From assembly GCA_050011565.1 (NCBI GenBank), contig JBEKIW010000001.1:1-64000 (forward strand): 64,000 nucleotides of DNA, in the 5' to 3' direction. This document shows positions 42,440-46,017 of this stretch, piece by piece; position 1 is the first letter of the stretch, and each line of letters begins with the position of its first letter. Origin of the DNA: Dehalococcoidia bacterium. Its GTDB lineage: Bacteria; Chloroflexota; Dehalococcoidia; GIF9; UBA5629. Both the position numbers and the translations under genes were made by a program. Under the pieces are notes generated by a model. It searched no databases, was not told where the DNA came from, and was given only the letters and a program-made list of their open reading frames with translations.

Positions 42440-42503
42440 AATAGACCTCCCGATAATAAGAATATACCTTTTTAATTTCTGTATAGCAAGTTTAGGTAGT
42501 GGG

Positions 42504-43373
42504 TCAATTTGAAACAGGAAATATTTTAGGGCTTGACATAGCTTCAAATTGAAATTGCAAATTTACTATATCCTCGATTGTCCACACATGGTCAGTTATG
42601 CCAGCAGCCATAGCCGGAGTAACGCCTAGTGTCTTATGAACCCTAACGAAGTTATAATACATGAAGTGCAGAGCTACAGCATGTTTAAGGTTATCTACTT
42701 TCTTTGAGAAGCCGTTAGTTAGCCTAGTAAACCGCCTCATGTTCATGCGCATAGTTAGATTCTGCCTCTCAACGAAGCTAGTTGATATTTGTTTAGGGTC
42801 TTGGCTGCCTTTTATAACGTGTGTTTCAGTCCCCAAGCACTCCGATGGGCTATAACGCTTATCACCCTTAGGGTCAGCGCCATACAGCTTTACAAGCATG
42901 GCATAGTCTATATTGTTACCAAACACATCATCTACCGCATCTAAATACTTTCTGTGACCATCTGTGGTTAATTGAACCCTATTAGTTAGCCTCTTGGCTA
43001 GGTCACTCATAAATTGATAGGCATAGTTGGCAGTTCTAAGTCCTACTAGCCAGCATGGTACTAGCTTAGTGTCAGTATCAATAGCAACGTATGTCCAAAC
43101 GTCACCATAACCTAGCTTGCCTCGTTTTTTCTCAGGCAGGTTATCCTGTTTGGCATAGCAGAATGACCATATTTCATCACACTGGATTCTCCGGCTCTGT
43201 AGCTTCTTTAAATTCTTATACTGGTAGAGATAACAGGCTTTGCCTACTTCGATAAGCAGGCGGGCTACTGTACCCTTAGCCACTCCGGTCATTCGACAGG
43301 TAGCACGTATGGAATTACCCTCAACAAGGGCTGTTATGACTTTGGTTCCTTGCCTGGTACTTAACTTGTTCAT
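42504..43373 (-). CDS. IS1-family DDE transposase (single ORF)
   Basis: N-terminal HTH (EGNSIRATCRMTGV), QCDEIWSF, LTTDG, STSFVERQNLTMRM..RRFTRLTNGFSKK; stop lies inside the left TIR. Confidence 0.93.
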   Translation of the reverse strand: MNKLSTRQGTKVITALVEGNSIRATCRMTGVAKGTVARLLIEVGKACYLYQYKNLKKLQSRRIQCDEIWSFCYAKQDNLPEKKRGKLGYGDVWTYVAIDTDTKLVPCWLVGLRTANYAYQFMSDLAKRLTNRVQLTTDGHRKYLDAVDDVFGNNIDYAMLVKLYGADPKGDKRYSPSECLGTETHVIKGSQDPKQISTSFVERQNLTMRMNMRRFTRLTNGFSKKVDNLKHAVALHFMYYNFVRVHKTLGVTPAMAAGITDHVWTIEDIVNLQFQFEAMSSPKIFPVSN

Positions 43374-43379
43374 ACCTAT

Positions 43380-43408
43380 ATTATACTTGACCGCTTAAGC
43401 ATTGTCAA
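43380..43408 (-). promoter_or_regulatory. Transposase promoter with embedded operator-like motif
   Basis: Minus strand TTGACA-17 nt-TATAAT, 6 nt before the ATG (leaderless); the spacer contains ATGCTTAAGCGGTCAAG. Confidence 0.75.
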
Positions 43409-43497
43409 GGGGTTTACCCAATAAAAAGCGCGCATTTTACCAGCAATCTGCCTTTATATTGTGATATAATGTGTTTATACAGACATAGGGGGTTATT

Positions 43498-44706
43498 ATG
43501 ATGACTTCTGAACAACTAAAGAAATTTGAAAAATTGAATAGGGCGTTTACGCCCAATCAGCCAATCTATCTTCCTGATTTCTTGGCAGGTAGACTAGATT
43601 TATTGTTCAAGGTACAAGATAGGGTAAAAACGCCAGGCTTACACATAATACTTTATGGAGAAAGGGGAACTGGGAAAACATCAATAGCGCGAGTCCTGGC
43701 CCATTTGTTACAAGAACCGAAAAAACAAGATGGTTATAGATCAATATTCGTTGGCTGTGTATCTTCTGATGGATATGCTTCTATCTGGAATAAAATTTCG
43801 AGGGAAATTTTAACTGCGCAACGACAACTCGGATTTACCCAGCAGGGTTTAGCCACAATTACCGGAAGATTAGATATAACCAATACTATTAATGAGCCAA
43901 ACGATGCCCGATTATTTGTAGAGGCACTTCCGAACCCATCAATAATTATTATAGATGAATTTGACCGTGTACCGACGCATACTAATACAAGAAGATTAAT
44001 GGCCGACACGATTAAGTTATTCTCCGATACTAATACCAAATCAACTCTAATTATCGTTGGAGTTGCGGAGTCTATAAGCGAACTCTTTAGCGAGCATCAA
44101 TCCATTACACGAAATATAGACGAAATTCATGTTGAACCAATGAATATCACAGAACTTAGCGAAATCATCCAAAAAGGGTATAAGTTGGCCGAGTTAAAGT
44201 ATCAAAAAAATATTGACGTTTTGATTGCTGGACTATCACAGGGTTATCCTCACTATACCCACCTGTTGGGATTATGGGCAGGCAGACATGCCGTTGAGGA
44301 AGATAGAACTGAAGTAACGACAGCAGATTTAGACCGCGCTATCAACGATGCGCTTCAAAATGTAACTGGTAGCGTAAAACAGGAATACGAAAAGGCAATA
44401 GATTCCGCATATCCGAATGCACTTTTTAAGGATGTCTTATTGGCCTGCGCTCTTGCGCCAAAAGATTCTGTGGGCAAATTCTCTTTAGCGGATGTCAAAG
44501 AACCCCTAAGCAGAATAACGGGGCATGATTATCAAACTAGTGCCTATCAGGCTCATTTAGCCAAATTTTGTGAACCAAAACGGGGTCCGGTATTAAAAAG
44601 AACCGGCGAACGTCGGAATTATCGTTGGAAATTCATCAACCCCCATTTAATTGCCTATGTTCAACTAGCGGGGATTGAAGATGGAAGTATTGCCAAAACG
44701 TATTAA
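43498..44706 (+). CDS. AAA+ ATPase (Cdc6/Orc1- or STAND-like) with probable C-terminal winged helix; transposon cargo
   Basis: AFTP..PI...FLAGR, Walker A GERGTGKT, Walker B IIIIDEFD, GYPHYTHL. Confidence 0.82.
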   Translation: MMTSEQLKKFEKLNRAFTPNQPIYLPDFLAGRLDLLFKVQDRVKTPGLHIILYGERGTGKTSIARVLAHLLQEPKKQDGYRSIFVGCVSSDGYASIWNKISREILTAQRQLGFTQQGLATITGRLDITNTINEPNDARLFVEALPNPSIIIIDEFDRVPTHTNTRRLMADTIKLFSDTNTKSTLIIVGVAESISELFSEHQSITRNIDEIHVEPMNITELSEIIQKGYKLAELKYQKNIDVLIAGLSQGYPHYTHLLGLWAGRHAVEEDRTEVTTADLDRAINDALQNVTGSVKQEYEKAIDSAYPNALFKDVLLACALAPKDSVGKFSLADVKEPLSRITGHDYQTSAYQAHLAKFCEPKRGPVLKRTGERRNYRWKFINPHLIAYVQLAGIEDGSIAKTY

Positions 44707-44708
44707 TA

Positions 44709-44954
44709 TTAATGCGGTGCGATTTTCCAACGAGTGGATGCAGCCATTTTGGCAATCTCCGTACGCTGCTCCGGAGTTAGCTTCTCTGCCCTAGCCTTGC
44801 CACCCTTCAAACCACCAAGCCTACCTAAGGCAACAGCATTAGGGTTTTTTTCTTTAGGTGGTGCTTCCGGCTCACTGGTAACTTGCTCGACAATGGAGGC
44901 AGCTAACTCATTGGTATCTTTGGGCGTCTGTTTCTTGCTTGAACGCTTAGGCAT
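44709..44954 (-). CDS. Small basic KGG-motif protein, IS1-associated
   Basis: MPKRSS...KNPNAVALGRLGGLKGGKARAEKLTPEQRTEIAKMAA..RW; TGGTATAAT 6 nt upstream of the ATG at 44954. Confidence 0.8.
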   Translation of the reverse strand: MPKRSSKKQTPKDTNELAASIVEQVTSEPEAPPKEKNPNAVALGRLGGLKGGKARAEKLTPEQRTEIAKMAASTRWKIAPH

Positions 44955-45013
44955 ATCATTATTATACCATAACATGTTATTAAATCAAGCCTGCGCGATT
45001 TCTAATTACATTA

Positions 45014-45041
45014 TTGCGTCTAAAAAAATCGGTGTTATAAT
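45014..45041 (+). promoter_or_regulatory. Promoter of the cargo tRNA
   Basis: TTGCGT-16 nt-TATAAT with TGn extended -10. Confidence 0.65.
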
Positions 45042-45051
45042 GGCGATTGGT

Positions 45052-45126
45052 GGGGCGGTAGCTCAACGGGAGAGTGATTGGCTGTCACCCAATAGGCCGA
45101 GGGTTCGACTCCCTTCCGCTCCACCA
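45052..45126 (+). tRNA. tRNA with GUC (Asp) anticodon but alanine identity elements
   Basis: GGGGCGG/CCGCTCC acceptor (G3:U70), A73, encoded CCA; D arm GCTC-AACGGGA-GAGT; anticodon arm ATTGG-CTGTCAC-CCAAT; T arm GAGGG-TTCGACT-CCCTT. Confidence 0.9.
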
Positions 45127-45173
45127 CACGATATGGACTTGACAATTCGCACATAATATCCTACTATTAAATT

Positions 45174-45250
45174 GACAGCCAATCGGGTAGAAACCCAAAG
45201 CGCAAACGGGCCAGGGGAAAAGGGCAAGGTCTCTGGCCTGTTTGTTTTTA
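45174..45250 (+). ncRNA. Candidate small RNA inside the transposon
   Basis: TTGACA-17 nt-TACTAT at 45139-45167, hairpin GGGT-AGAA-ACCC, then a 16-bp stem (45202-45245) and U-tract. Confidence 0.4.
45202..45249 (+). terminator. Intrinsic terminator-like hairpin
   Basis: GCAAACGGGCCAGGGG...TCTCTGGCCTGTTTGT followed by TTTT. Confidence 0.65.
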
Positions 45251-45309
45251 TACCGCTTGACACCCCCAATCCTAGTGTTATAATTCTTTTCATAAAGAGA
45301 AGGGTATTC

Positions 45310-45819
45310 ATGTTTCATAATATTTTTCTAACAGATTGGCATCAACTCTTCTTGATCGCTGCTGGCTTTCTAACGGCAACTCTACTCGTATGGGCTCAGT
45401 TTTGGGTGAATAGTTTCTATGATGAACAACTTTATGACAAGAGACCGGAAGATGATAGGCGTTTCTCGGTCAATGTAGCGGGCTTGTGGCTATTTTCTGG
45501 TGTATTATTCGCTCTTCTTGCCTTCAGTCTTACAGGCCTTGATTGGTTATATACTAGCCGATTGGTACACACCGTACTATACCATATTGAATTGATTGAA
45601 CGTCTTGCAACAGGCTTCCTAATGGGTGCCTTCGAAATAGCTCTTGTTGCTGTCGTAATACAATTAATCATGGCTTGGCGAACGTTAAAAGAAAAGGGAA
45701 ACGCGAAAAGAATTCGAATGGATTACACAGATAAGAGGAAAAGATATCTATTTATAGCCGTATGTGTTATACCATTTCTATTATTTGCTGTTAGCATACT
45801 CCTAACATTCATTATATAG
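45310..45819 (+). CDS. Uncharacterised membrane protein, about 4 TM; transposon cargo
   Basis: Own promoter TTGACA-16 nt-TATAAT (45257-45284); four hydrophobic segments. Confidence 0.7.
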   Translation: MFHNIFLTDWHQLFLIAAGFLTATLLVWAQFWVNSFYDEQLYDKRPEDDRRFSVNVAGLWLFSGVLFALLAFSLTGLDWLYTSRLVHTVLYHIELIERLATGFLMGAFEIALVAVVIQLIMAWRTLKEKGNAKRIRMDYTDKRKRYLFIAVCVIPFLLFAVSILLTFII

Positions 45820-46017
45820 CAGCCGGTCAAATATAAGCCATCTAGTTGCTCCAATCCCATCCCTTGACACCTTATGTCCAAATTGACCCACTACCCAAGT
45901 TTAGATGGTATAGATTTAATAAGAAATTGTATGAAGTTCGGATACCGCTGAGTGTTGCGTAGATTCGACGAATCGGGCATAATTATGTCCGGATTGTGTC
46001 TGGCAGGAGAGGAAAAT

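Follow-up and report, generated by a model that had tools for sequence, protein, structure and literature searches.

A candidate RNA-only toxin-antitoxin-like module, consisting of a hybrid-identity tRNA and an antisense small RNA, in an IS1-family element of a Dehalococcoidia bacterium

A 3401 bp mobile element (42495-45895) was analyzed in a Dehalococcoidia bacterium of the phylum Chloroflexota (GenBank assembly GCA_050011565.1, contig JBEKIW010000001.1); the window, that is, the whole stretch of DNA studied, comprises the first 64,000 nucleotides (nt) of the contig. The element is a complete transporter insertion sequence (IS) of the IS1 family, of the type with a single open reading frame (ORF). 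Its cargo includes a transfer RNA (tRNA) gene in which the body of a tRNA-Ala is combined with the aspartate anticodon GUC, and a predicted small RNA (sRNA) whose 5' end is complementary to the anticodon arm of that tRNA. The interpretation tentatively preferred here, at a little under even confidence, is that the two genes form an RNA-only toxin-antitoxin-like module riding on IS1 and IS1595 elements, with charging and expression predicted from sequence and toxicity presumed. Still more cautiously, the module may belong to a widespread RNA-only class, in which an alanine-charged tRNA reading aspartate codons would be the toxin and an sRNA directed against the anticodon arm the antitoxin. This class would be carried by IS1 and IS1595 transporter ISs in records labelled Chloroflexota, Candidate Phyla Radiation, Acidobacteriota and Nitrospirae, with siblings having the anticodons AUC and UGA.

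The tRNA was called tRNA-Asp(GUC) by ARAGORN and matched the Rfam tRNA family with 67.2 bits. Its acceptor stem has G1-C72, G2-C71, G3:U70 and G4-C69, followed by discriminator A73 and an encoded CCA. The anticodon loop, CUGUCAC (anticodon GUC, C38), is identical to that of the host tRNA-Asp (C4:91766), in which position 73 is G and CCA is not encoded. The alanine identity set (G3:U70, A73, G1-C72, G2-C71) is complete apart from the anticodon, which is GUC instead of NGC. In Escherichia coli the identity of tRNA-Asp is determined by G34, U35, C36, C38 and G73; the first four are present in the element tRNA and G73 is replaced by A73. The nearest of the 48 tRNAs of the genome is tRNA-Ala(GGC) with 62 identities, followed by tRNA-Ala(UGC) with 57, and the next-best BLAST matches in 77 genomes of the family are genuine tRNA-Ala genes at about 80% identity. 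Canonical features are kept throughout (U8, A14, GG in the D-loop, GTTCGA, U33, A37 and the encoded CCA), and the cloverleaf is of the canonical 7/5 type and not of the 8/4 or 9/3 type of allo-tRNAs. The module was found in two of the 77 family genomes. G008, from the same genus, has the RNA module at another locus; its tRNA homologue keeps all of the identity features and shows two double compensatory changes in the D stem. The initial annotation of the window had listed the tRNA as atypical cargo, rightly so, but its alanine identity and the complementarity of the neighboring sRNA to it had gone unnoticed. The base pair G3:U70 suffices for alanine acceptance and can be transplanted onto other tRNAs (PMC9976931, PMC11415595), and the anticodon is ignored by alanyl-tRNA synthetase (AlaRS) (PMC11415595). 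With alanine charging governed by G3:U70 and the anticodon disregarded by AlaRS, the element tRNA is expected to be aminoacylated with alanine and to decode GAC and GAU, giving Ala in place of Asp.

The sRNA matched no Rfam family, and its unit of promoter plus terminator spans 45139-45249. The box at its 5' end is directed at the 5' strand of the anticodon stem and at the loop, including the anticodon. When 11 related modules were aligned, the sRNA promoter hexamers, the box, the small hairpin and the terminator were conserved and the spacers had diverged. RNAalifold, applied to the alignment of tRNA plus sRNA, returned the cloverleaf and the 14-bp terminator, with compensatory changes in 22 of 38 predicted pairs (24 pairs belong to the tRNA or extend it, and 14 form the terminator of the sRNA); these changes preserve all four stems of the tRNA. 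The intermolecular helix of 13 pairs was paired in 99.3% of 143 cells, and six of the 13 pairs had changed on both sides: stem ATTGG facing box CCAAT, for example, corresponds to stem GTATA facing box TATAC. Its covariation score was reached by none of 500 shuffles, and slid controls were 13-36% paired. Cofolding yielded -66.2 kcal/mol versus -26.2 and -30.3 kcal/mol for the monomers (-56.5 kcal/mol together). In duplexfold of the whole sRNA, shuffles scored the same as the real sequence, and the other short repeats look like chance.

Recurrence of the module was surveyed with a pattern consisting of an alanine-type acceptor (GGGG...CTCCA), the loop CTGTCA and a T-loop, and the census was restricted to anticodon GUC. 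The pattern matched 16 times in 185,579 species genomes, four times in viral contigs and 57 times in metagenome contigs. Including the window and G008, 79 loci were obtained; ten were not recognized as tRNA by ARAGORN and were dropped, and the remaining 69 represent 55 distinct tRNAs. One of the ARAGORN-negative sequences (L209, L244) nevertheless has a 13-nt box. A box was defined as an exact antisense match of at least 11 nt that covers the anticodon and lies within 400 nt of the tRNA, and the conclusions rest on the exact-match counts. It was present with 31 of the 55 distinct alanine-acceptor/GUC tRNAs, on the same strand in 25 and on the opposite strand in six; in these six, too, the box is preceded by a promoter. 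In the same DNA, ten of 975 other distinct tRNAs had a box; five of these are alanine-type hybrids missed by the filter, including a tRNA with anticodon AUC and a 17-nt box in L245, which leaves 5 of 970. When matches of at least 11 nt at any position of the tRNA were counted, 33 of 35 fell on the anticodon arm. Promoter-like sites ended 2-14 nt before the box in 21 of the 31 modules (2.6% of 620 random positions), and terminator-like sites followed the box in 23 of 31 (12.4% of random positions).

The box-positive named records are labelled Peregrinibacteria, Parcubacteria, Saccharibacteria, Acidobacteriota, Nitrospirae or 'bacterium'. Recurrent neighbors within 2.5 kb are IS1595-like transposases (five loci), an IS1-like transposase (four loci) and a histone-H1-like protein (six loci). 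One metagenome contig (L245) carries three alanine-acceptor tRNAs with the anticodons AUC, GUC and UGA (3925-3995, 13424-13494 and 13816-13889). A group of alanine-acceptor/GUC tRNAs of Bacteroidota type (L058, L059, L199, L216, L220) has no encoded CCA and no detectable antisense box. A more general pattern, an alanine acceptor with any non-alanine anticodon, was discarded: 116 of its 120 viral matches (contigs among L074-L193) were normal tRNA-Ala(UGC) read one base out of register, and the other four were non-alanine by ARAGORN (Arg CCG twice, Arg UCU once, and one odd loop). A search for the sRNA motif without tRNA constraint in 401 genomes of the class gave 11 matches versus five for the reversed-pattern control, with a hybrid tRNA only beside the window's own match.

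The element is bounded by perfect 17-bp inverted repeats with an 8-bp duplication directly outside both ends, as the initial annotation had described it, and the reading frame of its transposase is intact. By Pfam, it lies between a DeoC/LacD-family aldolase gene on the minus strand and an AMP-binding PaaK-like ligase gene on the plus strand. To the right of the insertion, tandem PaaK-like ligase paralogues are found at 46021-47340 and 47434-48708, with about 79% DNA identity. An empty site with a single CAAGTTTA, which the same annotation had proposed to look for, was sought with a 6-kb query spanning the insertion site in 31 related genomes. None of the same-genus genomes searched has the element at this site; in two of them (G012:C15, G004:C123) the flanks, at 82-90% identity, overlap by exactly 8 bases and leave one CAAGTTTA. 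Contigs of four public DNA runs were also mapped to the locus, three from peat (X1-X3), of which X1 and X2 are possibly where the present DNA came from, and one from freshwater sediment of another study (X4). The element is present in X1-X3. A 699-nt contig of X4 joins position 42486 to 45896 and skips 3409 bases, with six differences; this empty site is about 99% identical. A second contig of X4 (3128 nt) begins at the left repeat and is about 91% identical across the transposase, the ATPase and the H1-like gene, but is without 44989-45230 (tRNA and sRNA) and without 45268-45868 (membrane-protein gene). Because X4 provides both the empty joint and a 91% identical relative without the module, the insertion is recent, and the stretch that precedes the right end is a slot of variable content. 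The identical inverted repeats, the intact duplication and the empty site of about 99% identity in X4 likewise support the earlier suggestion that the element is recent and probably active. No tRNA is present at the empty sites, so that the tRNA is ruled out as integration target and was correctly regarded as cargo from the outset.

Assignment to the IS1 family, also made in the initial annotation, is supported by the transposase, by the ends and by the duplication. Transposase residues 195-238 matched Pfam DDE_Tnp_IS1 with 25.9 bits (cut-off 24.1), and the NCBIfam equivalog transpos_IS1 (NF033558) gave 44.1 bits, under its cut-off of 100. More than 8000 relatives of the transposase were found; those with names among the best 120 are 'IS1 family transposase' or 'DDE-type integrase/transposase/recombinase' (JGI, NCBI), and several of them are from Dehalococcoidia or Chloroflexota. 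The transposase of a Mesorhizobium loti element, named 'IS1 family transposase', is 58% identical. The IS1 family is defined by ends beginning GGnnnTG and by target duplications of 8-9 bp; here the ends begin GGTAGTG, and an 8-bp duplication flanks all six complete elements found. Classical IS1 is about 0.8 kb long and contains two ORFs, insA and insB', that are connected by a -1 frameshift, whereas a single ORF of 289 amino acids (aa) and a length of 3401 bp are seen here; the element therefore fits only the single-ORF, passenger-carrying relatives of IS1, which presumably correspond to the 'ISMhu11 subgroup' of ISfinder. On its sequence scores the transposase belongs to a distant branch and not to classical IS1.

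Five further complete sister elements were identified, each with its own 8-bp duplication and with different cargo. They support the earlier proposal that this is an IS with passengers. One sister element lies in the same genome (G000:C3:226635-229407, partly contained in L005); it is 2773 bp long, has the duplication AAAAACTA, inverted repeats that match at 16 of 17 positions and a transposase 63% identical, and carries a Gp49 (HigB-like) toxin, an XRE-type helix-turn-helix (HTH) protein and an ORF of 181 aa. The others include L016 (3550 bp, cargo ParB_N-ASCH), L019 (2678 bp, cargo aspartyl protease) and L021 (2862 bp). The cargo of L018 consists of HTH and IrrE/M78 peptidase genes. The element of the Mesorhizobium loti plasmid CP050295.1 (about 470343-473712; L266:2296-5665) is 3370 bp long, with perfect 17-bp repeats and the duplication CGCTGGTG; it holds a gene annotated as 'histone H1', two cargo genes and the IS1 family transposase, and is not annotated as a single element. 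A repeat-bounded cassette of 1367 bp without transposase (L027:1672-3038; G014:C217) contains an H1-like gene, HicB and a HicA-like ORF; a matching target duplication was not seen at its ends. The genome also has a solo left repeat (C1:114767-114783, exact) and a solo right end of 27 nt (C1:298450-298476, one mismatch), neither with a partner within 8 kb.

All five sister elements and the L027 cassette carry a homologue of the small basic histone-H1-like gene, which adjoins the far end in L005, L016, L018-L022 and L027. The H1-like protein is 57% identical to the Mesorhizobium loti gene product annotated as 'histone H1' and was assigned by Atlas to the 'histone H1 family' with high confidence. 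It matched no Pfam family in the Pfam search, hence no KGG family, and the label 'KGG protein' under which it had initially been listed as cargo was rejected. The small basic gene itself is present as reported, but by its conservation it is a core accessory gene of this IS lineage and not cargo. Passenger-carrying or transporter ISs are an established category (PMC3129680, citing Siguier 2009). Like those of the IS1 and IS1595 families, the element has an IS1-type DDE transposase, GGnnnTG ends, an 8-bp duplication and, between its inverted repeats, passenger genes unrelated to transposition; it differs from them, as far as the available text of that source goes, in the conserved H1-like accessory gene and in the RNA genes of its cargo.

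The protein cargo consists of an ATPase and a predicted membrane protein. The ATPase matched Pfam TniB with 24.4 bits (cut-off 22.4), and a role as a TniB/IstB-like transposition helper was considered; since it is missing from all five complete sister elements, that role was rejected and the ATPase was taken as cargo. It is found in the 91% identical relative in X4 and in L252. PADLOC gave weak P-loop matches for the ATPase and none for the remaining cargo. No family was assigned to the membrane protein by Pfam, NCBIfam or Atlas. A homologue of its N-terminus (60% identity over 52 aa) occurs directly 3' of an ordinary tRNA-Gly(CCC) in L023:2965-3244 (G006:C14). The earlier view that cargo units have promoters of their own is supported for the tRNA, sRNA and membrane-protein genes by their -35 and -10 boxes, which are conserved, with diverged spacers; the raw count of promoter-like sites in the element (10) is not in excess of that in shuffles (9.9). 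The promoter before the membrane-protein gene and the aligned sites in L201, L203, L219, L226 and L252 each precede a different small gene, resembling a shared expression socket. The features of the element are compiled in Table 1.

Table 1. Features of the IS1-family element and its target site (positions in the window)
Feature	Position	Strand	Remarks
Left copy of target-site duplication, CAAGTTTA	42487-42494	.	Present once in the empty sites of G012 and G004 and across the joint in X4
Left terminal inverted repeat, GGTAGTGGGTCAATTTG	42495-42511	+	Contains the transposase stop codon; 16/17 bases shared with the repeat of the Mesorhizobium loti plasmid element
Single-ORF IS1-family DDE transposase, 289 aa	42504-43373	-	Stop codon inside the left inverted repeat
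Promoter-like site before transposase gene	43380-43408	-	12/12 consensus positions
Cdc6/ORC-like stand-alone AAA+ (nSTAND1-like) ATPase, 402 aa	43498-44706	+	Cargo
Small basic histone-H1-like protein gene	44709-44954 (ORF readable from 44975)	-	Homologues start at the internal Met
Extended -10 promoter element, TGTTATAAT	45033-45041	+	11 nt upstream of the tRNA; conserved in relatives
Hybrid-identity tRNA, tRNA-Ala body with anticodon GUC	45052-45126	+	
sRNA promoter, TTGACA, 17-nt spacer, TACTAT	45139-45167	+	
Predicted sRNA, about 78 nt	45172-45249	+	5' box, small hairpin 45185-45196, 14-bp terminator stem 45203-45244, T-run; ends predicted
Anti-anticodon box at sRNA 5' end	45173-45185	+	Pairs with tRNA positions 24-36: 12 Watson-Crick pairs and one G:U
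Promoter after sRNA terminator, before membrane-protein gene	45257-45284	+	12/12 consensus positions, with TG; conserved in relatives
Predicted multi-pass membrane protein, 169 aa	45310-45819	+	Cargo
Right terminal inverted repeat, exact reverse complement of GGTAGTGGGTCAATTTG	45879-45895	-	
Right copy of target-site duplication, CAAGTTTA	45896-45903	.	

The arrangement of the tRNA and sRNA genes is that of an RNA-antitoxin module: they are adjacent, have separate predicted promoters, and the RNA of the putative antitoxin is complementary to that of the putative toxin. The module also occupies the slot in which sister elements carry protein toxin-antitoxin pairs (Gp49 and HTH, HicB and HicA-like, HTH-IrrE). 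According to the toxin-antitoxin-like reading, AlaRS would charge the element tRNA with alanine, which would then be inserted at GAC and GAU codons. The sRNA, made from its own promoter and ended at its own terminator, would pair through its single-stranded 5' end with tRNA positions 24-36; such pairing would prevent the tRNA from decoding and might target the duplex for cleavage. A stable miscoding tRNA would thus be held in check by a continuously made antisense RNA, and the module may stabilize the mobile element or act in abortive defence.

Several observations weigh against this reading. No exact box accompanies 24 of the 55 alanine-acceptor/GUC tRNAs, the Bacteroidota-type group among them, so that the tRNA can exist without the partner, and the 91% identical relative in X4 shows that the element can do without the module. 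When pairing was scored leniently (G:U and one mismatch allowed, at least 13 pairs), 35 of 55 tRNAs qualified versus 52 of 958 controls, which is a substantial background. For 53 of the 55 tRNAs the alanine acceptor was a requirement of the search pattern itself, and conservation of this acceptor is independent only for the window, for G008, which BLAST had detected, and for the AUC tRNA of L245, which ARAGORN had detected. GUC and C38 are determinants for aspartyl-tRNA synthetase (AspRS), which could compete for the element tRNA and render it harmless. The toxicity of the tRNA and differing stabilities of the two RNAs are pure inference on our part.

The tRNAs without a box, which suggest that such a tRNA is tolerable by itself, would also suit a regulated and useful mistranslation, in which the cell or the element deliberately sets an alanine-charged GUC tRNA free, for example under stress or for proteome diversification, and the sRNA serves as a dimmer switch without any killing. 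The identity nucleotides, the covariation and the intermolecular helix fit such a function equally well, and dedicated mistranslating tRNAs without established benefit exist, namely tRNAProX (PMC11415595). It is nevertheless considered unlikely, as the module rides on IS elements, in the slot of the toxin-antitoxin pairs of the sisters, and its patchy distribution in the family agrees better with a selfish module than with host physiology. Alternatively, the tRNA-shaped RNA might act outside translation, as a sponge or partner for an sRNA with other targets, or as a decoy that draws away anticodon nucleases or some other factor that binds tRNA. Mukai et al. (2017, PMC5389517) reported irregular tRNAs, located close to toxin-antitoxin systems and transposons, that were charged yet unused in translation. 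The retention of all canonical tRNA features, the compensatory changes that preserve the four stems, and a box that always covers the anticodon itself make such a role outside translation improbable.

It is very improbable that the gene encodes an ordinary extra tRNA-Asp, carried as cargo and charged with aspartate via its anticodon, with the complementarity tuning its level only. AspRS does read the anticodon, and the loop is the same as in the host tRNA-Asp. Competition by the synthetase cognate to the anticodon is discussed in the available text of PMC10543346. However, the discriminator is A73 instead of G73, the full alanine set including G3:U70 is present in a body nearest to tRNA-Ala, and the host already has a normal tRNA-Asp. 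That the RNA units are decaying junk in a plain IS, with a complementarity arising by accident from a local inverted duplication, is scarcely credible: both the tRNA stems and the intermolecular helix show covariation, the pairing recurs with stems of unrelated sequence in records that bear the labels of different phyla, and the promoter and terminator are conserved.

Antisense-RNA antitoxins are known from type I toxin-antitoxin systems and from the RNA-OUT/RNA-IN pair of IS10, and pairs in which both the toxin and the antitoxin are RNA constitute type VIII, e.g. CreTA. Common to these systems and to the proposed module are a constitutive small RNA, a single-stranded end that pairs with a target loop, adjacent genes with promoters of their own, and the location on mobile DNA; here, however, the target is the anticodon arm of a mature tRNA instead of an mRNA, and the presumed toxicity would result from miscoding. 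The literature searches turned up neither a bacterial tRNA that combines a canonical tRNA-Ala body with anticodon GUC nor an sRNA antisense to a tRNA anticodon arm. The tRNAProX of Streptomyces and Kitasatospora is a natural bacterial tRNA of hybrid identity, predicted to mistranslate, in which acceptor identity and anticodon likewise disagree (PMC11415595). It differs in its proline identity, in A33 and A34 and in having a dedicated synthetase (ProRSx), and the available text of that paper describes neither an antisense RNA partner nor carriage by an IS. Allo-tRNAs (Mukai et al. 2017, PMC5389517) resemble the element tRNA in their non-cognate anticodons, of which GUC is among the commonest, and in their vicinity to toxin-antitoxin and transposon genes; some carry G3:U70 and insert alanine in E. 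coli. Their acceptor and T stems are of the 8/4 or 9/3 type instead of 7/5, and a cognate antisense sRNA is not reported in the available text.

As an insertion sequence, the element is a clean and datable example of a passenger-carrying relative of IS1, and its conserved H1-like gene may be a transposition cofactor. The cargo matters more than the IS: a tRNA of canonical shape and alanine identity is combined with an aspartate anticodon and with what appears to be a dedicated anticodon-masking RNA. If the toxin-antitoxin-like reading is true, miscoding would serve as a weapon or as an addiction device, and tRNAs could be direct targets of antisense control. The module would also offer a ready-made design of a switchable missense suppressor for synthetic biology. 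It would account for the clustering of hybrid-identity tRNAs with toxin-antitoxin and transposon genes, which is left open in the available text of PMC5389517, and mobile elements would be able to spread such 'saboteurs' of the genetic code across phyla.

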